Below are positions 5,795 to 53,519 of a stretch of 64,000 nt of DNA, piece by piece. Location of the stretch: the NCBI GenBank assembly GCA_963755905.1, contig CAVWLM010000006.1, positions 869,431 to 933,430 on the forward strand. Direction: 5' to 3'. The notes beneath the pieces were generated by a model. That model made no database searches. It saw only the letters and a program-made list of their open reading frames with translations, and was not told where the DNA came from. The stretch comes from an uncultured delta proteobacterium (GTDB lineage: Bacteria > Desulfobacterota > Binatia > Binatales > Binataceae). The number at the start of each line of letters is the position of its first letter. The stretch's first letter is position 1. The position numbers were made by a program, and so were the translations under genes.

Positions 5795-6053
5795 TACCCA
5801 GTACGTCTCTTCTTGGTCACTGGACCGGCGTCCTTGAACTTGGGGGCGCCGCTTTTCCCGATACTTAAGCCACTTGGTCGCTCTCTATTGTACTAACTAT
5901 CTTTAGCAGCCCGATCGAAGGCCCAGTGCCGCAGCACAGCCATCGCGACAGTTACGCAAAGCACTCATTGAAGGTGACAGGTTCAGTTTGACTCAAGGCG
6001 CATAAAGTGTGGTTTGATGGGGCAATCGCCGAAACGTTCAAGCGAGGTAGTGT

Positions 6054-6866
6054 ATGTCACTATGGGCCGAAGGTGTCCGCTGCTGCGCCGTCTTGAGTTT
6101 CGATCTCGACGCTGATCTGTTCTGGAAGGTTTGGCTCAACGGAAAGCCGTCCCTGCTGGACCGCTCGCAGGGCGAATACGGGCCCAGGGTTGGCCTACCC
6201 CGCATTCTCGCGATGCTCGCGCGCAACGACATTGAGGCGACTTTCTTCGTGCCGGGGCGCATAGCCGAACGATATCCGGACGCCGTGCGGTCAATTGCCG
6301 ACGCAGGTCATGAGATTGCCCATCATGGGTACGATCATGAGGACTTCTCGAAGCTCTCGGCCAACGAGCAGCGCGAGGTTCTCGCCAGAGGATCGCAGGC
6401 GCTGGAGGCTGTTACGGGACGCGCGCCGCGCGGCGCCCGTTTGATACCGGGTGAGGATACCGCGGCCATCGTTCATGAGGCCGGCTACCTGTATTCGAGC
6501 ATCATGATGGACGCGGAAACGCCCTACCGTTACGTCATCGATGGAAAGGCCAGCGATCTTATCGAGCTGCCAACGACGTTCGCCCTGAATGACTCTTCGT
6601 GTTTTGCCTACAGCTTTGGTCTGGCGAAGCCGCTCCTCACTCCCGGTATCGTAGAGGCTATGTATCTCGAGGAGTTCGAAGCCGAATACGAAGAACGCGG
6701 CTTCTGCATGTTCATGTTACATCCCCAGCTTATCGGACGTCCCGGACGGCTGCGCATGCTGGAGCGCGTGGTGACTCACATGAAGTCATACGGGGACGTG
6801 CTTTTTACGACGGCGGAAAAGGTAGCTGAACGATGCCGGCAGGTACTACCACGGGATGGTGCATAG
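6054..6866 (+). CDS. Polysaccharide deacetylase (NodB homology / PuuE-like) family protein
   Basis: FDLDAD... and ATFFVPGRIAERYPDAVRSIADAGHEIAHHGYDHE motifs match the NodB domain (Asp, His-His metal triad). GAGG sits 8 nt upstream of ATG 6054. Confidence 0.8.
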   Translation: MSLWAEGVRCCAVLSFDLDADLFWKVWLNGKPSLLDRSQGEYGPRVGLPRILAMLARNDIEATFFVPGRIAERYPDAVRSIADAGHEIAHHGYDHEDFSKLSANEQREVLARGSQALEAVTGRAPRGARLIPGEDTAAIVHEAGYLYSSIMMDAETPYRYVIDGKASDLIELPTTFALNDSSCFAYSFGLAKPLLTPGIVEAMYLEEFEAEYEERGFCMFMLHPQLIGRPGRLRMLERVVTHMKSYGDVLFTTAEKVAERCRQVLPRDGA

Positions 6867-7315
6867 TAGACGTGTATTAGATGTTCATCTTGGCCTAAGC
6901 GTTGCAGCCATCGTTTGGAGCGCTCAGGCTTCAAACCCGATTGCCAGTTTGCGTTTCTCCGCTTGAGCTTGCGCGACTTTGCGAAGCGGCAGCATAAAAC
7001 GGGCGCCGCCGACTCGAACTGTGTGGCCGTCGATGCTTCCGGAGAACAATTCGCTGCGCCAGGGTTTTGAAGCGAGCGCCGAAGCCGCATTCGACGTGGT
7101 CGCCACCAGAAAGCTGGCAGCTTCATCCTCCAGAAAGACCAATGGGGCAAAGAGAAAGCCCGCCGCTTCGGCCCGCGGCAAAGAATAAACGCCTCATGTC
7201 CTTCCGCGCGCTCGTACGCGCGAGGCCCGCGCGCACATCGCGAAAGATTCAAAGCGGCTCGCGCGGCGGTCCGCTCATACGGTTGCGAAAAGCGGTATCG
7301 GGCCGATTGCGCTCG

Positions 7316-10300
7316 TCACGGCTGCGTAGCCAGGCCGGCCGCAGTCACGTCATCTCGAGCGGGCGCTTGCGGATTGGCCGGACGCTTTGATTGCAGGTAC
7401 GGCAAGAGCGCTTTCGCCACCGAATCGACGAAATGCTCCTGCAGCATCGTCGAATGTCCACCATCAACGTCGACGCACGTGACGCCAGGCGCGACAATGC
7501 TCCAGCCGAACGTCTTATCGGCGTAGATATCCCGATATGGTGTGTCCGCCCCTTCGCCCGTCCGCGCGCGCACGAGCACGATAGCTGGAATCGATAGCGG
7601 CTTCGGCGTATAGCGCGCCTGGGCGGAATAATAGATCTGACTGACGTTGAGTTCCTGCACGAGCCTGGGCCAGGCGAGGTCGCGCCTCAGCACCTCGCGC
7701 AGCAAGCGAAAGCGGGCGCCGACCCACCACTGATTGCCGCGTTCCGAGACTTTCCAAAGCAGCGCACCGGTAAGCTTTTGCCTGATCGCGCGGGTCACCG
7801 CGAAGGCCCGCTTCAAAGGCGCGGGCTCGCTCTTTCGAGCATCCGCAATAGCCTGCTTCAGCCGGGCACGGCGCTGGTCGGCGAAGCGCCCCGGTCTCTC
7901 AGCGGTCCTTGGCAAAGCGCTTTCAAGCAAGGCCAGGAACTCGACCCTTTCGCCCGCGTTAACGAGTTGCCAAGCCATTTCGTAAGCGATCGTGCCGCCT
8001 GCGCACAGTCCCGCGAACAGATAGGGACCATGCGGCTGCTTGCTGCGGACTCTTTCGACATAAAACGCGGCCATATCTTCGATCGTGGTGTGAGCGAGCG
8101 GTACCCCTGCGATGCGCCGGGGCTCGATCGCGAATACCGCGAGGTCTTCTGGCATGCGACGCGCGAAATTCAAATAGAGCAGTGTTTCTCCGTCTCCATC
8201 GTGGACGAAGAAAAGGCTGCGCGGCCCGCCGCTCCTGAGCTCGATCAGTGCTCCGCTGCGGGAATTCGAAGGCGAGTTCGAGGGCGAATTCGGATGGATC
8301 GACGGATTTAATCCAGGCGTCTCGATCGACGACGGATATTCCCCAATCGTTGGAGTCACGCCTTCACGAATTCGATGGGCCAGCTTTTCAATCGTCGGAG
8401 CCTCGAAAATCGTGGCCGAGCTGAGTTGCACGCCGTAGGTTTTCTTGATTTTCGCGGACAGGCGCATCGCGGTAAGTGACTGTCCACCCATATGGAAAAA
8501 GTCGCTCTGCGGGGTAAGCGACTCCGCACCGAGCAGCTCCCGCCACCACTCCGCGACCGTGCGCTCGACTTCGTCACGCATCGCCTCGGCACTGTCCGGC
8601 TTGCCACTCGCGGCGAGGACCGCACGGAGAGGGCGCGCCCGTTCAAGGGCTGCAAAATCCGAGGGGAACACGACGACGTTCGCGCTGTATGCGCCATCGA
8701 GGACGCGCTGGAATGCCGCGATACCTTCAAGCGAAGAGATGCTGTCGCGCGATTCTCCCGTTTGCTTCCCGCTTCCGCTGTTTGCGATGACCGTCGCTCG
8801 CGCGGACGTCCTTTGAGCATCAAGGCTCAGGCCGTCGCGAATCTGCCGCATCATGAATTCCCGGATCTCGATCAGGACGTTGCCCTCGTCGTCCAGGATG
8901 TCGGCGTCGAAGATTGCGACCAGGCTATCCTCGACCGTGTCGGGACGGATACGAAGATAGCTGTGGCATCGAGCGGGCAGAGGCTTCTTCACGCTGATCC
9001 GCCCATAGCCCATCGGCACATAGGCGCGATTCAGGCTCTCGTAGTTGGGGACTAGAAATAAGGCGGCGCCGGTCGCCATATCGAGCAGCGCGGGATGGAT
9101 CTGATGATCACCGAGGTCGCTATGGAATTCAGGCGAGAGTTCCAGGTCAGCCAGCGCTTCTCCATCACCGAAAGCTATTCGACTGAGCGTGCGCCAGCGC
9201 GGGCCAAAGTCGAAGAAACTTTCCTGTATGCGATTCTGCCGATGGGCGAAGGTCAACTCGCGCAGGGCGCATCGGCCTCGCAGTTCGGCGAGATCATAAG
9301 CGGTTGTCCCGCCGCCGCGATCCTGAACCACCCGCGCGGACGCACATTCCGACCAGCCCGTTCGAGTTTGCACCAGCGCCGCGAATTGATGATCCGAACC
9401 ATTGCGGCGAAGTGACATCCGCAGCCGCCGTGTTTCGCCGGACGCGACCTCGAGCGGCAGCTTGAATTGGAGATCATGGATCGAGATTTGTTCGGGCGGG
9501 ATAAGTTCCTGGGCCGCCTTCAGGATCATCTCGATGTAGCCCGTGCCGGGAAAGACCCCGACGCCGCCGCGGGTGCGATGTTCTCGAACGACCCAGTCGT
9601 CTGCCAGGCTCAGTGTGATATCAAAGGCCGCTTCATCGTCACTGGCGCCGCCGATCTTAAACCCCTCCGGTTCGAGAGATGGTTCGTCCAGCACCCGTTC
9701 GCGATCGGCAGCCATCCCAGCATCGGTCCAGCGGGGGAATTGCAGCGCTATCACCGGGTAGGACCTGTCTCCCGAACGGGTGCGGGCAAACGCGTCGAGA
9801 AAGGCGTTCGCTGCCGCATAGTCCACCTGTCCGGCGGGCGCGAGCACAGAACTCACTGACGAACACAGCATCAGATACTCGAGCGGTTCGCTGGCGAAAA
9901 CGCGTTCGACCACCAAGGTCCCGCGGACTTTCGGGGCGAGAACCGCCGCCGCATCGTCGAAAGACTTGGTCAAGAGCGGGGCGTCGGCGATCGTCCCTGC
10001 GGTATGGATGACGCCCGTCACCGGGCCGAAATGCCGATGGATCGCGGCCAGTGCCGAGACCATAGCCGCTTCATCGGTCACATCGGCGGCGACCGCCATC
10101 ACCCGGGTACCATTTCGTTCGATCGACTCGATTTTCCCAAGAGTGATAGCCAGTGCCCCGCCGGCTTCTATCAGCCGCGGCCATTCCTCTCTGGCAGGCA
10201 GGCCGTTGCGCGACAGTAACACCAGGCGCGCCTTCGCTGACGAATCGGCGATCGCATCGGCCAGCGCGAGGCCGATACCGCCCAGCCCACCCGTAATCAC

Positions 10301-13300
10301 GTGAACTGCTCCGTCGCGCAGCCTTACCTGACTGCGCTTGCGCGCGAGTGGCTCGTAACGGCGCACGAAGCGCCGGCCGCGGCGATAAGCGACGAGGGGG
10401 TCGCGATCATTGGCGTCGAGTTCGGTGATGATCGGCCGCGCGACTTCGCCGAGCGCGCGGTCGCGCCTGCCGTTGCTTGCGGCAGCGACCGAAGGCATCA
10501 GCAAGTCGATCCGCAGGCATTGCAAATCGGGCAATTCTTTCGAAATTACGCCACAAGGTCCGGCGAGCAGCGCCTGCTCCGGACGATCGGATCGTTCTTC
10601 TTCCGGAGCCTCGAGGCCGTTCGAGCAGGCGGCGAATCGCACGCCGCTCGTAGCTTCGAGTTCCGCCGCAAATGCCTGGGCGAAGAAAAGGACGCTCCAG
10701 AAGCTCGCGGCCTCCGCCTCTTTGAGATCGTCGAGACCGGTGTGCGCCGGCGACAGATCGCCAACGCTCCACAGGTGCAGAATCCGCCGGGGGAGAGAAC
10801 CATCGACACCAAGGGCCGAGGCCAGTTGATCATAGTCTGCCCGGCGGGCCGGCGCGATTTGAATTTCGTCTTTGCCCTGCCGGGTGAAAGCCTCGCCGGC
10901 GCGGACAATAGTTACCTTTTCCCCTCGATCGCGCAGGATGGCGGCGGTGCAATCGCCCAATCCCTGCGCATCCGCGAAAATCAACCACGGACCGGTTGGA
11001 CTACTGGCGGGACCATCGGACCCGGGCAACTCCGCTTCTTTCCATACCGGACGAAACAGCCCAATACCCTCCGCTGCCGCCAATTCCGTTGTGGAGGAAT
11101 CCGGAATTGACGCCACTGGGGCTGACGGGTCGGGATCAATCCAGAAGCGCCGCCGCTCGAACGGATAGCCTGGCAGGGCCACCCGATGACGCTGCTCGCC
11201 GCGATGGTACCGGCGCCAATCGACGGGGCAGCCCGACGCCCACAGCACGCCCAGGGCACGCAGGAAACTCGCATCCGCCGGTGTGTGATCCCTCGCGCCA
11301 GCGAGCGTGTTGATCGTCTGAACGGCGGCGGGCCGCTCAGGATGTTGTGCGATCAGGGATGACAGAGTGCGGCCCGGACCGGCTTCCAGGAAAAGGGCGG
11401 CGTCCGCCTTTAGCAGTGCCGAGGCGCCTTCATAAAAGCGGACGGTGCCCCGTAACTGGCGCGCCCAATAAGCGGGCTGGCTCGCCTCCGCCGCGGCAAT
11501 CCAGTTTCCGGTAGTGCTCGAAACCCAGCGCAGGGACGGCGGTTGAGCCTCAAATCCGCCGATGAAGTTGGCGAATGGCTCCACTATCGGATCCATCATC
11601 GGAGAATGAAACGCGTGGGAGACGTGGAGCCGGCGCGAGTGAAGCTGGCGCCGCTTGAACTCGGCTTCCAATTCTTCGACCGCGTCCGCCGGACCAGCGA
11701 CAACACATTCGTCTTGCGCGTTCACGCTCGCGAGTGAGCAGCGATCATCGAGCAGCGGCGCGACCTCGCTTTCCGCCGCCGCCACTGCCGTCATCACGCC
11801 GGCCGGCAAACTCTGCATCAGGCGTCCGCGTTCGGCGACAATCCGCAAAGTATCATCGAGCGAAAACACTCCGGCAATACAGGCGGCCGCGAACTCGCCG
11901 ACGCTATGGCCAATCATCGCGCTGGGGACGATTCCGAGTGAAGTCCACAACCGCGCCAGCGCATATTCGATGACGAAAAGGGCGGGCTGGGTAATTCGCG
12001 TCTGTGCCAGCAGAGCGGCGGCAGCCGGCTCGGCTTCGGCGGCGGGAAAGATCGCACCGAGCAGATCGATTCCAAGATGAGGCCGCAGAAATTCACAGCA
12101 GTACTCGACGGTCGAGCGAAATTCCGGCTCGCTCTCGAAGAGTCCGCGCGCCATGCCCGGATATTGCGCGCCCTGGCCGGGAAACATGAAGACAACGGCC
12201 TGCCGGCTCTCGGACGCCATTCGCGTGATGACCGCCGCTTCATCCGCTTGGCGTATCGCCGCGGCCGCTTCACGACCGCCGCGGCAGACGACCGCACGCC
12301 GATACGGTAGCGCCGCACGCCCCAGATGGCAGGTGAAGACAACGTCGCTCAGCGATGCTGACTCGCCGCTGTCGAGATAATCAGCCAGGTTGCGCGACAT
12401 CGTTTCGAGGGCGGCCGGCGTCTTGGCGGAGAAAGTCAGCAACTCGCAATTTCGCGGCGGACTCGCGGCGATGGGCGGCGGCGCCTCTTCGAGCACCACG
12501 TGCGCATTGGTGCCGCCTATTCCGAGGGAGGTAACGCCGGCGCGGCGAACGCCGGCCGCCGGCTTCCATTCGCGCAGCGTGGTTGGGACGAAGAATGGGC
12601 TCTCGGCAAAATTGATTAGTGGGTTGGGCTGCTTCCAGTTGGGAGCCGGCGGAATCTGACGATTCTTCAAGGCGAGTGCCGTCTTGATCAGGCCCGCCAC
12701 CCCTGCCGCCGCGTCGAGATGGCCCACGTTGGCTTTCAGGGACTCGACCGCGCAGACGCCGCGGCGGCTGGTCCTGCGAAAGGCTCGCGTCAGAGCCTCC
12801 AGTTCGATCGGATCGCCAACGGTGGTGCCGGTGCCATGGGCCTCGATATAGGAGATCGAATCGGCGTCCACTCCGGCCGCGCCCATCGCTTCAGCGATAA
12901 CTTCGGCCTGGCCGGGGACGCTTGGAGCGAGAAACCCGACCTTGCGGGATCCGTCGTTGTTGATCGCGGTGCCACGAATAATCGCCGTGATCGAATCACC
13001 GTCGCGCAGAGCGTCTTCGAGACGGCGCAGCACGACGACGCCCAGGCCGCTGCCGAAGATGGTTCCGCTCGACTCCGCGTCGAAGGGCCGGCAATGGCCG
13101 TCGCGAGAGAGGATTTCTCCCTCGCGATAAAGGTAGCCGCGCCCATGTGGAATTTCGATCGTGACACCGCCCGCCAGTGCCATATCGCACTCGCCGCTAA
13201 GCAACGACTGGCTCGCCAGATGTACCGCCACCAGCGAGGTCGAGCAGGCGGTCTGCACCGCCAGGCTCGGTCCCGTCAGATTCAACTGGTAAGAAACCCG

Positions 13301-13792
13301 CGTCGCCAGAACATCCTTGTCGTTGCCGGTCTGCTTCAGCACAAAGAGCCCGGCTTCGCTGACCAGCTTGCGGTTCGCGAGCAGGTTGTGAATCAGATAG
13401 GTGTTCATGCCGGAGCCGGCATACACCGCGATTCGGCCATCGAATTGCTCGATCGCCCAGCCCGCATGCTCGAGCGCATGCCACGCGCATTCAAGGAACA
13501 GGCGATGCTGCGGATCCATGATCGCGGCATCTTTCGGGCTGAAGCCGAAAAACGCGGCGTCGAAAAGATCGATGTCATCGAGTATCGCGGCGGCTTTGAC
13601 GTAGGCGGGATTGCGCAAATCGTCCGCGTCAACTCCCGCCGCGAGTAACTGCGCGTCGGTTGGGCGCGCGATGGATTCGATCCCGCCGGCCAGATTGCGC
13701 CAGAATTGATCGATATCCCGCGCACCCGGAAAGCGCCCAGCCATCCCGATGATCGCGATGCCGTCCTGGCTCAAACTTGAGGGTTCTTGCAT
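7316..13792 (-). CDS. Single-module type I polyketide synthase, KS-AT-KR-DH-CP-TE
   Basis: 2158 aa. KS: DTACSTSL, EAHGTGT, KANVGHLDAAAG. AT: GHSVGE and HAFHS (malonyl type). KR: ITGGLGGIG, YAAANAF. DH: HRTRGGVGVFP, FGPRW, HPALLD. Carrier: FFHMGGQSL. TE: FFVHDGDG, GLCAGG, DGGHS. Confidence 0.95.
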   Translation of the reverse strand: MQEPSSLSQDGIAIIGMAGRFPGARDIDQFWRNLAGGIESIARPTDAQLLAAGVDADDLRNPAYVKAAAILDDIDLFDAAFFGFSPKDAAIMDPQHRLFLECAWHALEHAGWAIEQFDGRIAVYAGSGMNTYLIHNLLANRKLVSEAGLFVLKQTGNDKDVLATRVSYQLNLTGPSLAVQTACSTSLVAVHLASQSLLSGECDMALAGGVTIEIPHGRGYLYREGEILSRDGHCRPFDAESSGTIFGSGLGVVVLRRLEDALRDGDSITAIIRGTAINNDGSRKVGFLAPSVPGQAEVIAEAMGAAGVDADSISYIEAHGTGTTVGDPIELEALTRAFRRTSRRGVCAVESLKANVGHLDAAAGVAGLIKTALALKNRQIPPAPNWKQPNPLINFAESPFFVPTTLREWKPAAGVRRAGVTSLGIGGTNAHVVLEEAPPPIAASPPRNCELLTFSAKTPAALETMSRNLADYLDSGESASLSDVVFTCHLGRAALPYRRAVVCRGGREAAAAIRQADEAAVITRMASESRQAVVFMFPGQGAQYPGMARGLFESEPEFRSTVEYCCEFLRPHLGIDLLGAIFPAAEAEPAAAALLAQTRITQPALFVIEYALARLWTSLGIVPSAMIGHSVGEFAAACIAGVFSLDDTLRIVAERGRLMQSLPAGVMTAVAAAESEVAPLLDDRCSLASVNAQDECVVAGPADAVEELEAEFKRRQLHSRRLHVSHAFHSPMMDPIVEPFANFIGGFEAQPPSLRWVSSTTGNWIAAAEASQPAYWARQLRGTVRFYEGASALLKADAALFLEAGPGRTLSSLIAQHPERPAAVQTINTLAGARDHTPADASFLRALGVLWASGCPVDWRRYHRGEQRHRVALPGYPFERRRFWIDPDPSAPVASIPDSSTTELAAAEGIGLFRPVWKEAELPGSDGPASSPTGPWLIFADAQGLGDCTAAILRDRGEKVTIVRAGEAFTRQGKDEIQIAPARRADYDQLASALGVDGSLPRRILHLWSVGDLSPAHTGLDDLKEAEAASFWSVLFFAQAFAAELEATSGVRFAACSNGLEAPEEERSDRPEQALLAGPCGVISKELPDLQCLRIDLLMPSVAAASNGRRDRALGEVARPIITELDANDRDPLVAYRRGRRFVRRYEPLARKRSQVRLRDGAVHVITGGLGGIGLALADAIADSSAKARLVLLSRNGLPAREEWPRLIEAGGALAITLGKIESIERNGTRVMAVAADVTDEAAMVSALAAIHRHFGPVTGVIHTAGTIADAPLLTKSFDDAAAVLAPKVRGTLVVERVFASEPLEYLMLCSSVSSVLAPAGQVDYAAANAFLDAFARTRSGDRSYPVIALQFPRWTDAGMAADRERVLDEPSLEPEGFKIGGASDDEAAFDITLSLADDWVVREHRTRGGVGVFPGTGYIEMILKAAQELIPPEQISIHDLQFKLPLEVASGETRRLRMSLRRNGSDHQFAALVQTRTGWSECASARVVQDRGGGTTAYDLAELRGRCALRELTFAHRQNRIQESFFDFGPRWRTLSRIAFGDGEALADLELSPEFHSDLGDHQIHPALLDMATGAALFLVPNYESLNRAYVPMGYGRISVKKPLPARCHSYLRIRPDTVEDSLVAIFDADILDDEGNVLIEIREFMMRQIRDGLSLDAQRTSARATVIANSGSGKQTGESRDSISSLEGIAAFQRVLDGAYSANVVVFPSDFAALERARPLRAVLAASGKPDSAEAMRDEVERTVAEWWRELLGAESLTPQSDFFHMGGQSLTAMRLSAKIKKTYGVQLSSATIFEAPTIEKLAHRIREGVTPTIGEYPSSIETPGLNPSIHPNSPSNSPSNSRSGALIELRSGGPRSLFFVHDGDGETLLYLNFARRMPEDLAVFAIEPRRIAGVPLAHTTIEDMAAFYVERVRSKQPHGPYLFAGLCAGGTIAYEMAWQLVNAGERVEFLALLESALPRTAERPGRFADQRRARLKQAIADARKSEPAPLKRAFAVTRAIRQKLTGALLWKVSERGNQWWVGARFRLLREVLRRDLAWPRLVQELNVSQIYYSAQARYTPKPLSIPAIVLVRARTGEGADTPYRDIYADKTFGWSIVAPGVTCVDVDGGHSTMLQEHFVDSVAKALLPYLQSKRPANPQAPARDDVTAAGLATQP
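7373..8230 (-). other. Thioesterase domain with Cys at the nucleophile position (aa ~1855-2140)
   Basis: LFFVHDGDGETLLY and GPYLFAGLCAGGTIAYEMA. Cys1930 is codon 8003-8005 (plus strand gca, i.e. TGC). Candidate catalytic His in VDGGHSTM (codon 7454-7456). Confidence 0.8.
8363..8590 (-). other. Carrier protein domain with PCP-like GGxS motif (aa ~1735-1810)
   Basis: DFFHMGGQSLTAMRL; Ser1772 is codon 8477-8479. It is followed by the PNSPSNSPSNS linker. Confidence 0.8.
8843..9640 (-). other. PKS dehydratase (PS-DH) domain located after the KR (aa ~1385-1650)
   Basis: WVVREHRTRGGVGVFPGTGYIEM (catalytic His1405, codon 9578-9580), FFDFGPRW, and HQIHPALLDMATG (catalytic Asp). Confidence 0.75.
9758..11005 (-). 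other. PKS ketoreductase domain (structural + catalytic subdomains, aa ~930-1345)
   Basis: NADPH motif VITGGLGGIGLALA and catalytic Tyr in VDYAAANAFLD. It lies directly after the AT and linker and before the DH. Confidence 0.8.
11243..12196 (-). other. PKS acyltransferase domain, malonyl-CoA type (aa ~533-850)
   Basis: GHSVGE with Ser630 (codon 11903-11905). The HAFH specificity motif (SHAFHSPMM) is classically malonyl-specific. Confidence 0.8.
12488..13765 (-). other. PKS ketosynthase domain (aa ~10-435)
   Basis: Cys183 in TACSTS (codon 13244-13246) plus both catalytic His motifs are present, so it is a condensing KS and not a KSQ. Confidence 0.85.
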
Positions 13793-13810
13793 TGGCCGCC
13801 GTATCAGGCT

Positions 13811-15682
13811 TCAGGTTTGATCTTTTGCGAGATCGGCCGGGCGTCGGCGCCGGGCCAGGGCGGCCCGTCGTGCGGCGCCGCGTTCCATGCCGCTCTCCGA
13901 GGCGGAGTCGCCCGCGGCGCGGCTGCTTACGAAAGACGCGAGCGCACTCACCGTGGGATGCGCAAACAGGTCGGTAATTTTAAGCGGCCGGTCCAACACC
14001 TCGCGCAAAGTGGCGGCGGCTTCAGCGACGATGAGCGAAGTGGCTCCGAGTTCAAAGAAATTCTGGTGCAGTCCGACGATCGCACCCCCGAGCACATCGC
14101 CCAGCACGGCCGCGACTTTTTTCTCGATGATCGTGGCGGGTGCGGCGATTGGGCTTACCGCGCCGGCGGCAGCGGCCGGATCCGGCAGCGCCTTGCGATC
14201 GAGCTTGCCGTTGGGCGTGGTGGGTAGGCTGGGCAGGAAAATGAATGCGGCCGGGACCATGTACTCCGGCAATTTGCGCCGCGCGAGGATGCTCAATTCG
14301 TCAGAGGTGATGGCGTGGCCTTGCTCCGCCACCACGTAGGCCGCAAGTTGAACGACCCCCGAGCGCGCGTACGAAATGACGACGGCCTGCGCTACAGCCG
14401 GATGCTCCCGCAAGACCACTTCGATCTCGCCGGGCTCGACCCGATAACCGCGGATCTTGATCTGCTGGTCCGCACGGCCAAGAAACTCGAGCGAGCCATC
14501 CGGCCGATAGCGGCCGAGATCGCCGGTTCGATACAGCCGTTGTTCCGGCGATGCCCCAAAGGCCATCGTCACAAAGCGTTCCGCGGTCAATTCCGGCCGC
14601 TGCCAATAGCCTCGCGCGACTCCGTCACCGCCAATATAGATCTCGCCGGTTTCGCCATCTGAACACGCGCTGCCATCTTCGCCGACGATGAATACCTGCG
14701 TATTGGCGATTGGCCGGCCGATGGTGACCGGCTCTTCGGGCGTGACTCGCGCGGTGGTCGACCAGATAGTGGTTTCCGTGGGCCCGTACATGTTGAGCAG
14801 ATCGCCCGCGATGGTGCGCGACAGATAATGCGCCAGCGCGAGCGGCAAGGCTTCGCCGCCGAGGAGCAGTTTGCGAAGCAATCGCAGGGACTCAACCACC
14901 CGCGGCCGCCGAACCAGCAACTCGGCCATCGTCGGCGTACATTGAAGATGCGTCACGCGATGGCGCTCCATTTGCGCGGCGACGCCATATTCGCCGGCGG
15001 CCAGGAGCTTTTCCTCGTCGCCCTGAATCACCACGGTAAAGCCGCGCGCGAGCGTCCAGAGCAGTTCCAAAACGGAAATATCAAACGAGATACTCGTCAC
15101 CGCCAGCCACACGCCCGGCCGCGTGCCCAGGACTTCATCCATTCCCACGAAGAAATTGGTGACGTTGCGATGCTCGACCATCACGCCCTTGGGCGTACCG
15201 GTCGATCCCGAGGTGTACATCAGGTAAGCGAGACTGGACGGTTGCGCGCCGGCGATTTCCACCGCTCCGAAACTGTCCGGTCGTTCGCGCGGCTCGTCGA
15301 TTAGAATGATGCGGGCCGGGTGGTCGATGAAACGCGGCGCCAATCCGGTCTCAGTGATCACGGCGGCGGCTCGGCTGTCGTGGACCATGAAGGCCAGCCG
15401 CTCGGCCGGGAATGCGGGATCCAAAGGCAGGTACGCGGCTCCCGCATGCAGCACGGCGAGCATGGCGATCAGCATCTCGAGCGAACGCTCGAGGCAAACC
15501 CCAACCACGCACTCCGGGCCCACGCCGCGTTGCCGCAGGTGCGCCGACAGCTTTGTCACCGCGTCAATCAATTCGCCGTAGTTCAACTCGCGATCGCGGA
15601 AAATCGCCGCGGTGCGCGCTGGAGTAAGACGCGCCTGATGCTCGATTATTTCGTGAATCAATGGCGATTGATCTGCTTTCAT
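13811..15682 (-). CDS. Stand-alone NRPS adenylation-PCP didomain, predicted glycine-activating
   Basis: A-domain core motifs LAYLMYTSGSTGTPKG, FDISVLE, NMYGPTETT, GEIYIGGDGVARGY, YRTGDLGR, KIRGYRVEPGEIE and PNGKLDRKAL. PCP motif FFELGATSL (Ser549). No C domain. The hand-extracted Stachelhaus code is DILQLGMIWK. Confidence 0.93.
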   Translation of the reverse strand: MKADQSPLIHEIIEHQARLTPARTAAIFRDRELNYGELIDAVTKLSAHLRQRGVGPECVVGVCLERSLEMLIAMLAVLHAGAAYLPLDPAFPAERLAFMVHDSRAAAVITETGLAPRFIDHPARIILIDEPRERPDSFGAVEIAGAQPSSLAYLMYTSGSTGTPKGVMVEHRNVTNFFVGMDEVLGTRPGVWLAVTSISFDISVLELLWTLARGFTVVIQGDEEKLLAAGEYGVAAQMERHRVTHLQCTPTMAELLVRRPRVVESLRLLRKLLLGGEALPLALAHYLSRTIAGDLLNMYGPTETTIWSTTARVTPEEPVTIGRPIANTQVFIVGEDGSACSDGETGEIYIGGDGVARGYWQRPELTAERFVTMAFGASPEQRLYRTGDLGRYRPDGSLEFLGRADQQIKIRGYRVEPGEIEVVLREHPAVAQAVVISYARSGVVQLAAYVVAEQGHAITSDELSILARRKLPEYMVPAAFIFLPSLPTTPNGKLDRKALPDPAAAAGAVSPIAAPATIIEKKVAAVLGDVLGGAIVGLHQNFFELGATSLIVAEAAATLREVLDRPLKITDLFAHPTVSALASFVSSRAAGDSASESGMERGAARRAALARRRRPADLAKDQT

Positions 15683-15721
15683 GCTGGCTTCATGGTCGAA
15701 TGCGGCCTCATCGGCCGCGTT

Positions 15722-17479
15722 TCAAGCGCGAGTGACGAGCGCGTCGCCGAGAAACAGGCAATCGATACCGGTTCCTAGGAAGGTTTCGATTGCTTCGCGC
15801 GGAGTATTTACGATCGGTTGGCCCTTCACGTTGAAGCTGGTGTTCAACACCATCTCGCGGCCAGTGACCGAACCGACCTCGCGCAACAGTTGGTGAAATT
15901 CCGGATTGTCTTCGCTCGCCACGGTTTGCACGCGCGCCGATCCATCCACATGAGTAATGGCAGGGAGCGCCGCGCGATACTGCGGACGAACCATCACTGT
16001 CGCAATCATGTAGGGCAGCGCCGTTCCCGGCGCGAGGTCGAACCATCGATCGGCCTGCTCGATTGAGACCGCCGGAGCAAACGGACGAAACGCCTCGCGC
16101 AGCTTGACCATCGCGTTGACCCGGTCGCGCATCTCGGGCCGGCCGGGGTCGGCAAGGATACTGCGGTTGCCCAACGCCCGCGGCCCGAACTCCATCCGCC
16201 CGCGGTACCAGCCGAGTACTTCTCCATCCCGGATCCGCTCGGCGGCGGCCTTGGCCACCCCGCGGAAATCATCGAAGCGGCGCACGCTCACGCGGCCGGA
16301 AAAATCGGCAAGCGCGGCTTCAATCGCTGTCCGATCGTAGACGGGTCCGAGAAAGGGCGTCGGCATGCGGCGCCGCTCGGGAAGCCCTCGCAGCGAGGCG
16401 CGAAACAGTGCCGCGCCGAGCGCGGCGCCATCGTCGCCGGCAGCCGGCTGGACGAAAATCTCGTCGAATAATCCTGACCGCATCAGCAGGCCGTTGGCGG
16501 TGCAGTTCAGGGCTACCCCGCCCGCCATCGCGAGTCTTCGCAATCCCGTCTGTTCGGTATAGTGACTGCAGATGTGGCGGACCACGCGGTTCAGGCAGTC
16601 CTGCAAAGCCGCCGCGAGGTCACGATGAGCTTGCGTGATTTCGCCGTCCGGCTCACGCGCGGGAATGAGCCTGTCGGCCAGCCATTCCCGCGTTTTCAGA
16701 TAATTTTCGCGTTCATCACGGGTGCGATTGAGCCGCAGTATCGGAATCCGCACCGCGCCCGCGGGACGGTATTCCACCATCTCATCAAAGGCCGCCTGGT
16801 AGCGGCGGGGATCGCCGTATGGCGCCAGACCCATGATCTTGTATTCATCGGAATTGAAATCGAAACCGAGATGAAGCGTTATCAACGAGTAAAGAATACC
16901 GATCGAGTCGCTGGCCGAGATTTGCCCAAGGCGGCGCAGTTCACCATTGCGGGCGTGGAAGATCGAGGCGCCTTGAGTTTCTCCCATCGCATCGATCACA
17001 ACGGTCAGGCATTCATCCCATCCTGAGGCGAAGCAGGCGCTTGCCGCATGGCATAGGTGATGGCTTACCTGGTGGACATTCTCGAGCGGAAAATCAGGCG
17101 CGAATTCCTCCACGCCGTCGAGAAAAGCTTCCTTCGAGAAGACTTCGGCGAAAAGGCGCTCGCTTACAGGGTCGAGCGAGTAAATTTCCTCGAACGGTTC
17201 GTAGTTGAATGCATGAGCGATTTCGCTCACGTCCGAGAGGCCTATACCGGCTTGTCGCAGGCAAAAGGCCGCCGCCTCGCGGGGAAAGGCGCCCGAGTGT
17301 TTCTGGCGATTGAAGCGTTCTTCAGCGGCGGCGGCGACGATCCGGCCGTCCACAATTAAGGCGGCGGCGGCGTCGTATCCTTGTGAGATGCGATATTCCC
17401 GTTCATCAAGATATGGCCAGTTCTCGCGTTTGAAACGAAGGGAATTGGCAAGCCCGCTGATTCCTAGGATGGCTGTCAT
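15722..17479 (-). CDS. Carbamoyltransferase (NodU/CmcH family)
   Basis: 585 aa. N-terminus MTAILGISGL...DAAAALIVDGRIVAAAAEERFNRQKH is typical of the NodU/CmcH/TobZ-type ASKHA domain, and the C-terminal half is YrdC-like. It is the first gene of the operon, 39 nt upstream of the A-PCP. Confidence 0.9.
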   Translation of the reverse strand: MTAILGISGLANSLRFKRENWPYLDEREYRISQGYDAAAALIVDGRIVAAAAEERFNRQKHSGAFPREAAAFCLRQAGIGLSDVSEIAHAFNYEPFEEIYSLDPVSERLFAEVFSKEAFLDGVEEFAPDFPLENVHQVSHHLCHAASACFASGWDECLTVVIDAMGETQGASIFHARNGELRRLGQISASDSIGILYSLITLHLGFDFNSDEYKIMGLAPYGDPRRYQAAFDEMVEYRPAGAVRIPILRLNRTRDERENYLKTREWLADRLIPAREPDGEITQAHRDLAAALQDCLNRVVRHICSHYTEQTGLRRLAMAGGVALNCTANGLLMRSGLFDEIFVQPAAGDDGAALGAALFRASLRGLPERRRMPTPFLGPVYDRTAIEAALADFSGRVSVRRFDDFRGVAKAAAERIRDGEVLGWYRGRMEFGPRALGNRSILADPGRPEMRDRVNAMVKLREAFRPFAPAVSIEQADRWFDLAPGTALPYMIATVMVRPQYRAALPAITHVDGSARVQTVASEDNPEFHQLLREVGSVTGREMVLNTSFNVKGQPIVNTPREAIETFLGTGIDCLFLGDALVTRA

Positions 17480-17848
17480 TTGGCTTATTAAACGCTAGTG
17501 TTGGCCGCTTGAGCCAATCTAACATGAAATAAATATCATTGACCTTCTTATAATGCGCGTTGAGCGCGTCTGGGTCAAGACCGAAGTTTCTGGCTTAAAA
17601 ATAGCGCGGATACAGCTTACGCGAGGCTATACGGAGGCACGCTTCGCGGCCGATTGCATAAGCAACTCTATCGGATCGAATTAGCTTGGTGTCTTTCGGT
17701 CCGGACACGTGCATTTTTTAGGGCAGGATGGGACTCGGACGGTCGACCCCGGATATGGTCTTCAGGAGGCGCATGGCGCCCCGGTATCGGCCGGGACGCC
17801 GTCCTCTAGGTTGCGTCAAGCGACGTGGCGGCGCGCAGTTCGATGGGA

Positions 17849-19048
17849 TCAGTCGCGACAGGCACCCGCCAAACTGCATACGGCGACGCTTCTGCGGCCT
17901 TCGCGGAGATCGTTGCGGTCGTACCCATTGGTCAGATAGCCGAAGGAAATCCCGGTCGCCGGATCAGCCCATCCGATTTGCCCGCCGAAGCCCGGATGTC
18001 CGAAGGCTTCGGCCGAGTTCGTGCGTCCGAAACCGCGCAGATTCGCCTTGCCGTCACCGCCTGCGATCACGATTCCGAGTGCCCGATTCGCGGTTATGCC
18101 GCGCGCCTGATCGATCAAATTTCCACTGCGGATGCGCCGCGCCTCGCGCAACATCTCCGACTGCCAGATACGCGTGCCGTCATATGCCTTACCGTCATCG
18201 AGCAGGGCCTGGTAGAAGAGCGCGATATCGCCGGCCGTGGTCATCAGGCCCGCGGCCGGAAAATCCATCTCGCGGAGCTTCGGGTCGTTCATTTCCAACA
18301 CCACGTCCTCGTTGATGGAGTCCAGGTTGCCGCGCGGGGGCGTTACACCGAGCTTCCGATACTCCTCCTCCTTGGCGGGTTCACCGACCCACTTCACGTC
18401 GGCTAGCCGGTGTTGGATCGAGCGTGGCAATCCGATTCGCAGATCGGGCAGTCCGAGAGGCTCTGCGATTCGTTCACGCACGAAGTCGCCGAGACGCTTC
18501 CCCGTGATGCGCTCGATCGCATCCGCAATCGGCCAGTAATTCGCGTGTATATGGTAAACGAACTTCTCGCCCGGCGGATTCACGGGACGCCACTGGGCGA
18601 AGCGTTCCAGCCGCAGTTTGCGATCGCCCCAATCCTTGAAAGAGCCTGGCGCAACCGGAATGCCCGCGGTATGAATCAGCAAGTGCTCGATCGTCGTGGA
18701 CTCTTTGCCGTTGGTACCGTACTCCGGCACGTACTTGACGATCTTGTCCGCGGGACTGATTTTTCCTTCCTGGATGAGAAGCCATAGGGCCGACGAGGTT
18801 ATCGCCTTGGTCGCTGACATCGCGACGAAAACGGTCTCGTCGGTGGCCGGCTTGTCCACGCCGCCTTGCATCGCGCTGCCGAAAGTTTTCATCGCCGCGA
18901 TCTTGCCGTTGCGGGCGATTGCCACCTGACATGCTGGAAGAACGCCGTCTTTTACATCGCGCTCGGCGCGATCCATCAGCGCCTGCACCTTGTCCGGATT
19001 GAGACCTACTTCGGTCGCGCTATCAGCGAAGAATTTTTCCTCAGGCAT
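17849..19048 (-). CDS. Serine hydrolase, beta-lactamase/transpeptidase fold (class C / EstB-like)
   Basis: SxxK motif in VFVAMSATKAITSSALW, with the length and layout of class C beta-lactamase-family esterases. Confidence 0.85.
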   Translation of the reverse strand: MPEEKFFADSATEVGLNPDKVQALMDRAERDVKDGVLPACQVAIARNGKIAAMKTFGSAMQGGVDKPATDETVFVAMSATKAITSSALWLLIQEGKISPADKIVKYVPEYGTNGKESTTIEHLLIHTAGIPVAPGSFKDWGDRKLRLERFAQWRPVNPPGEKFVYHIHANYWPIADAIERITGKRLGDFVRERIAEPLGLPDLRIGLPRSIQHRLADVKWVGEPAKEEEYRKLGVTPPRGNLDSINEDVVLEMNDPKLREMDFPAAGLMTTAGDIALFYQALLDDGKAYDGTRIWQSEMLREARRIRSGNLIDQARGITANRALGIVIAGGDGKANLRGFGRTNSAEAFGHPGFGGQIGWADPATGISFGYLTNGYDRNDLREGRRSVAVCSLAGACRD

Positions 19049-19255
19049 CGGGCACTCCCTTTTGAGCGTTTCAGCCGCACGCGAGCGCGACGGCTAAGAT
19101 GCGTGATTCCTGAAGTGCTGCATGAACACGCGCGTCCCGGAATGTATGCGGCGCCATTGGCGATCAGCAATAGGCTGGTGGCATCTCGGGATGCGGGAAC
19201 AAATCGCTCCTTCTCACTTCCGTCTGTTCGCCACGCCGCTCGGACTATAGCAACG

Positions 19256-20319
19256 TCAATCTTCACACGGAAAATACGGCAACAAACCCGTGTCGGGGTG
19301 ACAGTTGACGTATTCGAATAACTGGCCTTCAGCCGGCAAAACGGAAACCTCGTGCCAGAGCTTCAACTTGAGATTCGATCCGTGCTCCCGCGCCATCGTC
19401 AGGAATTTTGAAAAGATCGCCAGATGCGTGGGATGAGTCGAGGACCATTTCTCCAGGTGTCCCAGCGTCAGGAAATAGCCCAAACCGAAAGTCCTCTTCA
19501 GAGGCGAACCGTCGCGGTTCGTTTCTTCGGCGAAACGTAGGTCACAGCATCCGGTTTCGTCCGGGTGATCGCGCAGAAAGCTCATTCCCTCGAGAAGCGC
19601 CGGTTGCACCGACTCTCTATATTGGGCCAATTCGGGGCCTGCACAATTGGTCCAGTCCTGCCCGGAGCGAATGATTGCGAGATTCTCCGGGACCCTGACC
19701 CTGAGCCGACGGTTCGCCCTGGCCGTTGCGCCTAGCCGTGGAAGACGCTCGCCAAGAGGGCTAAGGAGACCGTCGTTGGCTGAGACCGGGATGCGGTCGC
19801 GCATGCTGCCCCAATAATTGTGCTCGCGGATGGGACCTATAACCGGACAACCGCCTGTCTTCGCCACACCGATCAGACAATCGTAAGTGAAGAGGGTCTC
19901 GAATCGGTTAGGCGGGATCTGAGAATCTCGCGAAAATGTCCTTGCCCATCGTTCAGACGGGCCGGATCGCTCCACCAGGCCGCGAAACCGGACTTGTCTT
20001 TCCATCTTTCGTAGCTGGCGGGATCTGTCCAGTACGCGGATAAAAGGAAATTGCGATATCCGGCACGATCGACAAAATTTGCGCTTTCGATGTTCGCGGG
20101 AGCGTCCGCGGAATCCAAGAACTCATCCATTTGCGACCCAGGTCGCCCATGATCGTGCGATTCAAACTGCGTCCCGAAGTATGCCATCACGACTGGCGTC
20201 GTCAGTTGCGCGAAACTGACCGACCAGGCTGGCGCAGGTGGCCTCCAATCCGGAGGCATGAATCGCGGTGAGGGCGAAAGAGCAACCAATTCCCGCCGCT
20301 CGTCCAGCTTTTTGCCCAT
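19256..20319 (-). pseudogene. oxd: Aldoxime dehydratase (Oxd family) interrupted by a single-nucleotide frameshift
   Basis: ORF 19873-20319 encodes the Oxd N-terminus (...AYFGTQF...YWTDPASYERW...WWSDPARLNDGQGHFREIL). ORF 19256-20005 in another frame continues with ...IPPNRFETLFTYD...HNYWGSMRDR...RSGQDW...THPTHLAIF...LWHEVSV...YVNCHP. The span is 1064 nt (3n+2). The junction is near 19918-19923. Confidence 0.8.
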
Positions 20320-27373: not shown

Positions 27374-28504
27374 ATGGCAAGCGACAGGCTCAGCAAAACC
27401 ATTCGACACGTACGGGCTCTTCGTGGATTGACGCAGGCCGAGCTCGCCGGACAGGTCGGCATTTCAAGGCAGGCTCTGGCTGCCATCGAGTCGGGAACCT
27501 ACCAGCCGAACGTCGCCGTGGCGGTCCGGCTGGCGCGCGTTGTCGGTATAACGGTGGAAGAGCTTTTTGGTGACACCGAAGAAGATTACGAGCATCGTAT
27601 CGACGCGTGCTGGAAGAAGTCTCCCGCCGTTACCGCCAATCGTCAGCGGGCAGTGCTCGCCCGGGTGGGTGGAAAGATCGTGGCGCTGGCCCAGCCGAGC
27701 GCCTGTTTGACGCTGCCGGTTTCGAGCGGCATCTGCGTAAAGACCGCGGGCGCCCGGGCATGCGTCTCAACACGCCTACTGGATAATGAAATCGACGCGA
27801 CACTCATTATTGCCGGGTGCGATCCGGCGGTTGCGATCCTGATAGCGTGGATGGCCCGGGCCGGCTCCCAGATAAACGCCGTTGCTTTTCCCTGTTCAAG
27901 CGGTAGGGCTCTGGCGGCGCTGGCCGACGGATCGATCCATGTGGCCGGCGCGCATTTGCGCGACCCGGAGAGCGGAGATTACAACCTCGCGCCGGTGCGC
28001 ACTGCTATTGGCAAAGGCCGTATATGCGTAGTCAATTTCGCGCGGTGGGAGGTGGGACTTGTCACCGCGGAAGGCAACCCGCGCGGAATTCGCGATTTCT
28101 GTGATTTGGCCCGGAGCGATGTGCGAATCATTAACCGAGAACAGGGTTCGGGAGCACGTCAGGCCTTGGACGAAGCACTTTCGGAAGCCGGCCTAAGGCC
28201 GAGCCTGATAGCGGGATACGAAGATGAGGTCGCGGGTCATCTCGAGGTTGCCGCGGCGGTGCAAAACGGAGAGGCGAACGCCGGCGTGACCATCCGGGTC
28301 GCGGCCGAAGCCTACGGCCTCGGCTTCATCCCGTTGCGGGAAGAGCGTTATGATCTGGCCATCCCTGAAGCCGAGCTTGAATCAGCGCCGGTGAGCCGAA
28401 TGTTGGACGCGCTCAGTTCGCGCCGCTTCGCCCGCGAGGTGGAGCAGCTTTGCGCCTACGACACGACGCGAATGGGCGAGGAGCTCGCCCGAATCGACTG
28501 TTAG
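27374..28504 (+). CDS. Transcriptional regulator, XRE-type HTH fused to ModA-like PBP_like domain (COG1910 type)
   Basis: N-terminus LRGLTQAELAGQVGISRQALAAIESG is an HTH_3. The C-terminal ~250 aa show the COG1910/PF12727 pattern (GSIHVAGAHLRDPESGDYN...INREQGSGARQALD...GYEDEVAGHLEVAAAV..G.A.AGV...AAEAYGLGFIPL..ERYDL). Confidence 0.75.
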   Translation: MASDRLSKTIRHVRALRGLTQAELAGQVGISRQALAAIESGTYQPNVAVAVRLARVVGITVEELFGDTEEDYEHRIDACWKKSPAVTANRQRAVLARVGGKIVALAQPSACLTLPVSSGICVKTAGARACVSTRLLDNEIDATLIIAGCDPAVAILIAWMARAGSQINAVAFPCSSGRALAALADGSIHVAGAHLRDPESGDYNLAPVRTAIGKGRICVVNFARWEVGLVTAEGNPRGIRDFCDLARSDVRIINREQGSGARQALDEALSEAGLRPSLIAGYEDEVAGHLEVAAAVQNGEANAGVTIRVAAEAYGLGFIPLREERYDLAIPEAELESAPVSRMLDALSSRRFAREVEQLCAYDTTRMGEELARIDC

Positions 28505-28533
28505 ACCAGGATTTGAGAAGGAGGGTTCAACCA

Positions 28534-30039: not shown

Positions 30040-30114
30040 GCTTTGCAGGCTGCCGGCCCGATGCCGGCCGTTGGATTAATACAAAAAACGTTCGTCCTAT
30101 ATCGGAGGAGAAAA

Positions 30115-31617: not shown

Positions 31618-31720
31618 ACAGAGCTCTAACTTCAACACGCGAAGGCGGCTGTTTCGATTGTCGGCACAGCCGCCTTCGTTCGCAACGATCCTCTCGAACT
31701 CGAATAGCGGAGATTCTGAC

Positions 31721-53010: not shown

Positions 53011-53519
53011 GGGAGAGCCTCCACCGGCTGGAAGATCAGCGTCTCGCGGTTCCGCGCGAGCATATCGCCCCGTTGGTTGACATAGGTGGCGACCGAGATC
53101 ACCACCAGCATCGATCCGCCGCGCGACGACTCGTGTTCCGAAATGTCCTCCAGCAGCCAAGTAACGTTTATGCGATCCTCCGGCATTACGGGACGAAAAA
53201 ATTCGTAGTCGTGTCCGCCACGGATCATCCGGCATCCTTTGATTGGCAATTCCCAGGTATGGCCGACATAGCCGTCGTGGTCGGGCGGCCGATGCGCGTA
53301 CTGACAGGTCTCACAGACAAAGGTCGGTGGCGCGATGATCGAAGGATAGCCGGCAGCGCGAGCGTAGGCGTCGTCGACATAGAGCGGATTGTCGTCACCG
53401 ATTGCGAGCGCGAAGTAGCGAATCGAGGCTCGCCCGATCTCTTCGGGCGCAGCGTAACTAACCTCGCGCCCGATCCATCCCCGAAGCTCCTCTGTCAGCA
53501 ATGCGCCGATGGCCGTCAC
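53007..53519 (-). CDS. MaoC_dehydrat_N / FAS1-like hot-dog domain protein (N-terminal-type subunit)
   Basis: ...TEELRGWIGREVSYAAPEEIGRASIRYFALAIGDDNPLYVD.... The proposed GTG 53519 overlaps the stop of the RidA gene (GTGA). The start is uncertain. Confidence 0.65.
   Translation of the reverse strand: MTAIGALLTEELRGWIGREVSYAAPEEIGRASIRYFALAIGDDNPLYVDDAYARAAGYPSIIAPPTFVCETCQYAHRPPDHDGYVGHTWELPIKGCRMIRGGHDYEFFRPVMPEDRINVTWLLEDISEHESSRGGSMLVVISVATYVNQRGDMLARNRETLIFQPVEALP

Follow-up and report, generated by a model that had tools for sequence, protein, structure and literature searches.

What might a bacterium assemble with three genes for a carbamoyl transfer, the activation of one amino acid and a single polyketide extension, and at which stage would the carbamoyl group enter? 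The question is raised by an operon of an uncultured delta proteobacterium of the Binataceae (GenBank assembly GCA_963755905.1), which lies in a 64,000-nt stretch of contig CAVWLM010000006.1 (positions 869,431 to 933,430 of the forward strand); this whole stretch is called the window below, and all coordinates refer to it. The operon encodes a carbamoyltransferase (CT), a stand-alone adenylation (A) domain with its peptidyl carrier protein (A-PCP) of the nonribosomal peptide synthetase (NRPS) kind, and a type I polyketide synthase (PKS) of one module. The module comprises a ketosynthase (KS), an acyltransferase (AT), a structural and a catalytic ketoreductase region (psiKR and KR), a dehydratase (DH), a carrier and a thioesterase (TE). 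We consider it very likely that together the three proteins form a functional minimal assembly line for glycine, malonyl and carbamoyl units, encoded in a single operon:

15722-17479, minus strand: CT of the NodU/CmcH/TobZ family, open reading frame (ORF) of 585 aa
13811-15682, minus strand: stand-alone A-PCP, ORF of 623 aa
7316-13792, minus strand: single-module type I PKS, KS-AT-psiKR-KR-DH-carrier-TE, ORF of 2158 aa

The intergenic gaps are 39 nt (CT to A-PCP) and 18 nt (A-PCP to PKS), and 369 nt of non-coding DNA lie upstream of the CT. As read from the sequence, all three ORFs are intact, with every catalytic motif and residue present. A chance artefact was dismissed because the ORFs are long and intact, E-values reach down to 1e-88 and the synteny recurs in many genomes. 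Searches by tblastn, motif scans and Pfam annotation of the neighbors found no condensation (C) domain, MbtH protein, phosphopantetheinyl transferase (PPTase) or further KS, A, PCP or TE in the whole 64-kb window beyond the trio. Neither a formylation (F) domain nor the SGG[KR]DS motif of OzmP/CongE-type proteins was found in the window, and the operon contains no enoylreductase and no acyltransferase other than the AT domain. The original prediction, made from the letters alone, had placed three minus-strand genes with these gaps at exactly these positions. Its gene identities were confirmed by Pfam and NCBIfam, its statement that the operon has no C domain, MbtH or PPTase can be extended to the full window, and its remark that the trio resembles no characterized pathway agrees with our literature search, which covered the trio, Binatota gene clusters and the KS entries 8XJU, 4OQJ and 4WKY and found no characterized counterpart.

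The domains and their key residues are as follows:

~16406-17377, minus strand: Kae1-like N domain of the CT (Pfam)
~15728-16243, minus strand: YrdC-like C domain of the CT (Pfam)
~14204-15643, minus strand: A domain, code DILQLGMIWK, with D201 corresponding to GrsA 235 and K493 to GrsA 517
~13928-14119, minus strand: PCP of the A-PCP, Ser549
12638-13762, minus strand: KS, Cys183-His319-His358 triad intact
11252-12193, minus strand: AT, GHS630VG, and HAFH at 726-729
~10670-11059, minus strand: psiKR, the KR structural subdomain (NF047870, KR prefix)
9725-10309, minus strand: catalytic KR, TGGLGGIG, Ser1312, Tyr1325, Asn1329
8831-9646, minus strand: DH, His1405 in HRTRGGVGVFP and Asp1571 in HPALLD
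8369-8560, minus strand: carrier of the PKS, NRPS-type FFxxGGxS, Ser1772, with PCPs as its best solved relatives
7403-8218, minus strand: NRPS-type TE, Cys1930 nucleophile (GLCAGG, codon 8003-8005), Glu1957 (7922-7924), His2113

The CT matched Carbam_trans_N with 173 bits (cut-off 24, E 1e-50) and Carbam_trans_C with 225 bits (cut-off 27, E 6e-67), and its metal site is kept (H140-x3-H144, D163, D350). Among solved structures in the PDB it aligned best with NovN (E 1.6e-114 over residues 35-584), and also with GdmN and TobZ. It is not NodU itself, scoring 139 bits against NF041651 where the cut-off is 1000. Of the three proteins the CT is the most conserved, with at least 66% identity across the top 120 database clusters.

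Pfam recognized AMP-binding, AMP-binding_C and PP-binding in the A-PCP, and the A domain exceeded the TIGR01733 cut-off (441 vs. 317 bits). By alignment with GrsA and comparison with known glycine codes, its Stachelhaus code DILQLGMIWK is that of glycine. The pattern DILQ[L/F/C]G[M/L][I/V]WK recurs in 118 of 119 database relatives of the A domain, and a glycine code was also read in three further loci (L004, L006, L013), so that the glycine specificity proposed originally stands. Three orthologues from Binatia (P0030, P0043, P0110; e.g., L090:8001-10622) carry an additional N-terminal segment of ~245 aa, missing from the A-PCP of the window, which weakly resembles a condensation domain and could be vestigial or serve in docking. 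In another case (P0027, L088:8001-10634) a glycine-type A-PCP is fused to a TE in a protein of 877 aa that adjoins phage-integrase and transposase genes. Having neither CT nor PKS beside it, this fusion was dropped as an informative relative and is probably what rearrangement has left of the cassette.

In the PKS, Pfam placed ketoacyl-synt N and C and Acyl_transf_1, followed by KR (residues 1162-1356), PKS_DH_N/PS-DH (1383-1654), PP-binding (1745-1808) and Thioesterase (from 1859), in agreement with the KS-AT-KR-DH-CP-TE order first proposed. This order departs from the canonical cis-AT arrangement KS-AT-DH-psiKR-KR-ACP in that KR precedes DH. It prompted us to consider an enediyne- or polyunsaturated fatty acid (PUFA)-type iterative synthase, which was ruled out since both KR and DH find their matches among the domains of modular PKSs (PksJ, MlnE, CurF, GphF). 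The best solved relatives of the KS are KS or KS-AT entries (8xju/8xjy, 7zma, CurL, 4wky, 4oqj); we presume 8xju/8xjy to be ClbI and 4oqj/4wky to be KSs of oxazolomycin, an assumption on which no argument here depends. Extender specificity is by established rule read from HAFH- and YASH-type motifs, and HAFH rather than YASH supports a malonyl-CoA-type AT, as does the GHSVG motif; the malonyl extender had been foreseen. The KR is B-type-like, since its LDD motif ends in Asp1270 and a Trp motif is missing, and its closest solved counterparts come from the trans-AT PKSs PksJ and MlnE. For the DH, the nearest matches are CurF, GphF and CurK; its motif has the spacing HxxxGx5P, one residue longer than the HxxxGxxxxP consensus, and His1405 and Asp1571 are conserved in all aligned relatives. 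Because these two residues are kept family-wide, a dehydrated, 4-aminocrotonyl-type chain is more likely than one of the 4-amino-3-hydroxybutyryl (GABOB) type. The ketoreduction and possible dehydration of the original prediction thus keep their basis in intact motifs, with the GABOB-type outcome it listed alongside now the less likely one.

The TE, whose presence had been noted but whose nucleophile had been overlooked, has the G-x-C-x-G elbow, the His and the acidic residue of the Cys-nucleophile class. Its best solved match is the NRPS TE AB3403 of A. baumannii, in which a Cys aligns at the same position; the TE of the window differs in that it closes a PKS module and has Glu as its acidic residue, where Asp is usual. 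Only the closest subclade (window, L002, P0121-P0123, P0126) shows this Glu1957. The nucleophile is Cys in the ten closest PKS relatives and in sphingomonad and Methylibium loci of a sister family described below (L009, L010, L017), and Ser in 48 more distant relatives belonging to at least two other TE lineages, a distribution which indicates that the release domain was exchanged among lineages while the remainder of the line stayed constant. Cys-type TEs have been linked with the formation of strained rings, and ObiF and SulM are reportedly further NRPS examples.

Relatives of the window were labeled Candidatus Binataceae or Binatus, and the trio recurs with unrelated flanks across Candidatus Binataceae and in some Acidobacteriota. 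The order CT, A-PCP, PKS is repeated in loci whose A-PCPs are 70, 66, 55, and 54% identical to that of the window, and also where the C-terminus of the PKS is only 31-37% identical, including a metagenome-assembled genome (MAG) of the Acidobacteriaceae; KS identity across lineages is 68-85%. In two metagenome contigs (L122, L095) the CT follows the PKS instead of preceding the A-PCP. When every ORF of the window was compared by tblastn with eight trio loci, only the three trio genes were conserved. To judge from this recurrence with different flanks, and sometimes with a different gene order, the trio is a self-contained cassette under selection and not a piece of a larger line. The locus had been described as an orphan, a description that does not survive: the cassette is widespread and conserved among Binataceae and in part of the Acidobacteriota, and roseobacters and sphingomonads carry a sister cluster. 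Nor are the genes fragments of an assembly line encoded elsewhere, an outcome the original prediction had allowed for, as the 64 kb hold no further KS, A, C, PCP, or TE and synteny with other genomes is limited to the trio.

The sister family also bears on the role of the CT. A genome scan recovered the same PKS architecture, with KSs 58-64% identical, from Sphingobium sp. Leaf26, Novosphingobium, Methylibium, Tabrizicola, Pseudogemmobacter, another Pseudomonadota MAG and a Chloroflexota MAG; of these, Sphingobium sp. Leaf26 and Pseudogemmobacter lacusdianii are cultured strains and the other five are MAGs. In these loci the PKS is preceded by a gene for a formyltransferase fused to an A domain, in which a luciferase-like monooxygenase (MOx) is embedded, and to a PCP [F-A(MOx)-PCP]; these A domains, too, carry the glycine code. 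A GT2 glycosyltransferase follows the PKS in most sister loci, usually with a PPTase. F-A(MOx)-PCP, PKS and GT2 are all present in P. lacusdianii (L015) and in Leaf26 (L017:878-15519), the latter having a PPTase and a sugar transferase as well. Both strains would make the family as a whole accessible to experiment. In the Binatia, two loci (L004, L008) have the CT version together with an orthologue of the GT2 that is translationally coupled to the PKS. Among the 17 loci with this PKS, ten have a CT and seven the F-MOx fusion; none has both and none has neither.

A hybrid PKS/NRPS cluster conserved among roseobacters has been recognized since Martens et al. (2007). In its statements on this cluster, one source gives its content as NRPS, PKS, glycosyltransferase and PPTase genes, with the product still unidentified in 2016 (PMC5014874). 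Our literature search found neither a later identification of that product nor a characterized counterpart of the F-MOx architecture. From gene content, rather than by comparison with published roseobacter sequence, we infer that the sister loci are this cluster. The window shares with it the PKS architecture, an upstream A domain with the same glycine code, the lack of a C domain and, with its sphingomonad and Methylibium versions, a Cys-type TE. It differs in having a separate CT instead of the fused formyltransferase and monooxygenase-containing A domain, and in having neither GT2 nor PPTase within 64 kb. Since it lacks these two genes and carries a CT foreign to the roseobacter-type cluster, the cassette is, judged by its genes, a relative of that cluster and not a member.

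We fetched 80 CT-encoding metagenome loci, 33 of which had a CT at least 59% identical to that of the window; apart from the classifiable ones, these 33 were too short. In all 18-19 classifiable loci the CT stands beside an adenylating enzyme and a carrier protein, six to seven of them being the trio and 12 a second type of operon. The CT orthogroup is accordingly a habitual partner of aminoacyl-carrier-protein chemistry. The second operon (L116:6263-14736, and also L103, L106, L109, L111, L113-L115, and L121), whose CT is ~62% identical to that of the window, encodes in order a luciferase-like monooxygenase, a stand-alone adenylating enzyme, a 97-aa carrier, a hexapeptide-repeat acyltransferase, the CT, a flavin monooxygenase and an ATP-grasp protein. 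Its adenylating enzyme has amino-acid-type Asp235 and Lys517 and the code DLFFLCLIAK; we know of no characterized counterpart of this operon.

Taken together, the gene and domain content suggests the following route, each step of which we infer. The A domain would adenylate glycine and load its own PCP. The CT would form carbamoyl-AMP from carbamoyl phosphate and ATP, as TobZ, NovN and GdmN do, and use it to carbamoylate glycyl-S-PCP on its free amine; in the resulting N-carbamoylglycyl-S-PCP the starter would be capped by a step functionally equivalent to the formylation performed by F domains. As there is no C domain, the KS would have to take the PCP-bound starter directly, and would condense the capped glycyl unit with malonyl from the cis-AT. 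The B-type-like KR would reduce the 3-keto group and the DH would then remove water, leaving an (E)-4-ureidobut-2-enoyl chain bound as a thioester to the PCP-like carrier, from which the Cys-His-Glu TE would release 4-ureidocrotonic acid or a form cyclized through attack of the urea on the enoyl or thioester carbon. The PPTase would be supplied from elsewhere in the genome.

Our confidence differs among the parts of this route. N-carbamoylation of glycyl-S-PCP as a starter cap has, in our view, about an even chance of being correct, and we are similarly divided over the model as a whole, from PCP loading and N-capping through one extension, reduction and dehydration to release by the TE. The exact product, a small carbamoylated C4 acid of the 4-ureidocrotonyl type, is a tentative proposal that we would not expect to hold in detail. 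Capping on nitrogen is favored by the mutual exclusivity of CT and F domain, by the position of the CT and by its recurrent pairing with A and carrier proteins. Before extension, moreover, glycine offers its amine as the only acceptor, and capping would prevent the self-lactamization to which a 4-amino thioester is chemically prone. That the family can act on such a group is shown by the NodU-like StdF, which N-carbamoylated a primary amine in vitro (PMC13174530). Carbamoylation "on N or O" in the original prediction can accordingly be narrowed, if conditionally: nitrogen on the PCP before extension is favored and late decoration disfavored.

How does this compare with known systems? Statine-type hybrid modules, which combine an amino acid thioester with one malonate and a ketoreduction to give gamma-amino-beta-hydroxy acids, follow a logic like that leading to GABOB; they lie inside long NRPS lines, take peptidyl chains and, unlike the window, are not known to have an active DH or a carbamoyltransferase. 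A precedent for direct transfer from PCP to KS without a C domain, which had been proposed for this locus from the start, lies in formylglycine loading modules such as those of conglobatin and phthoxazolin. In these F-A-PCP modules, OzmO (oxazolomycin), CongA (conglobatin) and PtxE (phthoxazolin), the F domain formylates the amine of PCP-bound glycine and the next KS extends the formyl-glycyl unit with malonyl (PMC4504003; PMC5764310). The window would share with them the PCP-loaded glycine, the N-cap added while the amino acid is tethered, the direct passage to a KS and the malonyl extension. It differs in that the cap would be carbamoyl from a free-standing CT rather than formyl from a fused F domain; in that the oxazole systems form the oxazole with an OzmP/CongE-type ATP-dependent cyclodehydratase, of which the window has no SGGKDS-motif protein; and in that those modules start long trans-AT lines, whereas the window has a single cis-AT module ending in a TE. 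The CT itself resembles NovN, GdmN, TobZ, and StdF in its Kae1-like and YrdC-like architecture, its metal-site residues and its full-length alignment with NovN. NovN, GdmN, and TobZ differ in decorating hydroxyls of finished or late intermediates, and to our knowledge no enzyme of the NodU/CmcH/TobZ family caps a carrier-protein-bound amino acid as a chain starter.

Several observations weigh against capping on nitrogen or against the simple product drawn above. The closest solved relatives of the CT, NovN, GdmN, and TobZ, are all O-carbamoyltransferases; no CT-A-PCP fusion of the "Rosetta stone" kind was found among the top 120 CT relatives; and in a Bryobacteraceae locus (L091:10001-12383) a CT 67% identical to that of the window is translationally coupled to a DUF218 gene, with GH130, PilZ, and UDP-glucose dehydrogenase genes nearby and no A-PCP or PKS within 10 kb. 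This CT nests among the trio-linked CTs in a neighbor-joining tree, so that the orthogroup is not exclusive to this assembly line, and its carbohydrate-type neighborhood suggests a hydroxyl acceptor there. The solved relatives and the Bryobacteraceae CT speak for a late O-carbamoylation, in which free glycyl-S-PCP would be extended and ketoreduced and the CT would then act on the 3-hydroxyl of the resulting 4-amino-3-hydroxybutyryl chain, whether still carrier-bound or already released; the intact KR would create the hydroxyl needed, and the outcome would be an O-carbamoyl-GABOB-type product, or a carbamate that cyclizes to an oxazolidinone or acts as a leaving group. We regard this course as unlikely, because the family-wide His and Asp of the DH lead one to expect removal of the hydroxyl, CT/F exclusivity and the pairing with A domain and carrier point to the aminoacyl stage, and an uncapped 4-amino-3-oxo or 3-hydroxy thioester would on chemical grounds tend to lactamize by itself. 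The Bryobacteraceae locus, together with the sister clusters that function with no CT at all, would also fit a CT that is a mere conserved neighbor with an unrelated substrate, leaving the A-PCP and PKS to make an uncarbamoylated 4-aminocrotonate, pyrrolinone or tetramate-type lactam. We consider this very unlikely given the tight 39-nt spacing to the A-PCP, the linkage of CT, A-PCP, and PKS across phyla while flanks and gene orders vary, and the presence of either a CT or an F domain at each locus.

Other points concern the product more than the cap. The module may be used once or iteratively; the swapping of TEs among lineages blurs the release chemistry; and the additional monooxygenase and GT2 of the sister clusters mean that their products are not simple formyl analogues of a carbamoyl compound. 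Glyco-genes recur near several versions of the cassette, so that an acyl product could end on a sugar. These considerations lead to a further possibility, that the module is iterative or its product directed to a glycoconjugate, yielding a longer ureido-polyenoyl chain or a C4 unit passed to a sugar or glycan by the Cys-TE, a glycosyltransferase or both. The GT2 is translationally coupled to the PKS in L004, L008, and most F-type loci, genes for GT4, sugar transferases and polysaccharide export recur nearby, the KR-before-DH order is non-canonical, Cys-TEs are generally suited to acyl transfer, and the second CT context includes a hexapeptide acyltransferase, a kind that uses acyl-carrier-protein donors. 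However, GT2 is absent from the window and from six relatives (L002, L003, L005, L006, L013, L090), the KR and DH resemble domains of modular PKSs and not those of enediyne or PUFA iterative synthases, and the operon has no enoylreductase or acyltransferase of its own, so that we think this outcome quite improbable. An analogy with NodBC-like lipo-chitooligosaccharide synthesis (CT, GT2, and deacetylase) was dropped, as the deacetylase is not conserved and GT2 is generic. Within the N-capping route itself, the CT might act in trans on glycyl-S-PCP as the chain-initiating cap, and the ureido-enoyl thioester might then be cyclized to a small cyclic urea, a route that most Binataceae would share. 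Candidate modes are aza- or oxa-Michael addition or TE-mediated attack, with 2-oxoimidazolidine-4-acetate, a 2-amino-oxazoline and a 1,3-diazepinedione as candidate products; this is a speculative extension that we hold to be improbable. Finally, that the operon is an inactive evolutionary remnant strikes us as extremely improbable. Relatives with a broken-up cassette do exist (L003, L005, L006), as does one that retains no more than the A-PCP-TE fusion beside an integrase, and no PPTase lies nearby, but the three ORFs of the window are intact in every catalytic residue, conservation is strong (CT at least 66%, KS 68-85% across lineages), and the breaks are found in long-read MAG assemblies, where they may be sequencing errors.

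Two signals and one transporter gene lie around the operon, the signals being compatible with one transcription unit running from CT through A-PCP to PKS:

17550-17578, minus strand: sigma-70-like promoter match TTGACC-17 nt-CATTAT, ~70 nt upstream of the CT start
7159-7182, minus strand: terminator-like hairpin with a T-rich tail, ~134 nt past the PKS stop codon
3059-4237, plus strand: gene for an MFS transporter, the only transporter near the operon, on the opposite strand

Neither scan exceeds chance overall, and both signals are suggestive by position only: the promoter scan of 6000-19500 gave one match where 2.9 were expected, and the terminator scan 11 hairpins where 12.3 were expected. 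No Rfam family matched anywhere in the window, and thus no riboswitch or other RNA was found upstream of the CT. The operon had been said to lack an exporter, and indeed the nearest transporter is the MFS gene on the other strand, which is not conserved beside the trio.

Convergent to the PKS lies a gene of polysaccharide-deacetylase fold (6054-6866, plus strand) whose best NCBIfam resemblance, below the cut-off, is to PuuE, an allantoinase and hence ureide hydrolase; its place beside a putative ureido-acid pathway is intriguing, but in other genomes it is not a conserved neighbor of the trio. The genes that adjoin the operon upstream (17849-20005, minus strand) encode a LipE/EstB-like esterase of beta-lactamase fold and a protein like the haem-type aldoxime dehydratases. 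The esterase, the aldoxime-dehydratase-like gene, an amidohydrolase, the PuuE-like deacetylase and the MFS transporter were all excluded as cluster members, as none is conserved beside the trio in other genomes. Farther away, three tandem full-length aldehyde dehydrogenase paralogues of 529, 524, and 523 aa (28450-33229, plus strand) are preceded by a PBP-like/HTH regulator and followed by an aldo/keto reductase. A stretch of higher GC content (0.65-0.66) at 40803-63842 contains four family III CoA-transferase genes, an acyl-CoA dehydrogenase, a short-chain dehydrogenase/reductase, a luciferase-like monooxygenase and the alpha subunit of a ring-hydroxylating oxygenase, and resembles an island of genes for breaking down an organic acid or an aromatic compound. 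A 401-aa protein (53516-54721, minus strand) is unusual in carrying three RidA/L-PSP (endoribonuclease L-PSP) stretches in tandem on a single chain.

Precedents exist for minimal hybrid NRPS-PKS lines, for N-capped glycine starters and for TobZ-type carbamoyltransferases. What is new is their combination in a three-gene cassette, with a free-standing CT in the slot of the formylation domain, together with the KR-DH-PCP-TE(Cys/Glu) tail and the fact that the cassette is so common in an uncultured phylum. If the CT does cap PCP-bound glycine, this would be a new kind of NRPS-PKS starter modification, a new class of acceptor for TobZ-like enzymes and a carbamoyl counterpart of the formylation domains; should the chain be cyclized to a urea, it would represent a previously unknown thiotemplated route to cyclic ureides and a hint at the chemistry of the roseobacter cluster. 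At 10 kb and three genes the cassette suits heterologous expression, and its solution would offer a handle on the sister cluster of roseobacters and sphingomonads. Almost nothing has been reported on the secondary metabolism of the Binatia (Binatota), uncultured bacteria that abound in soil, and one survey listed three clusters in total. Since the cassette occurs in more than 100 sequence clusters from this lineage, its product is probably part of the normal biology of Binatia rather than a rare antibiotic.

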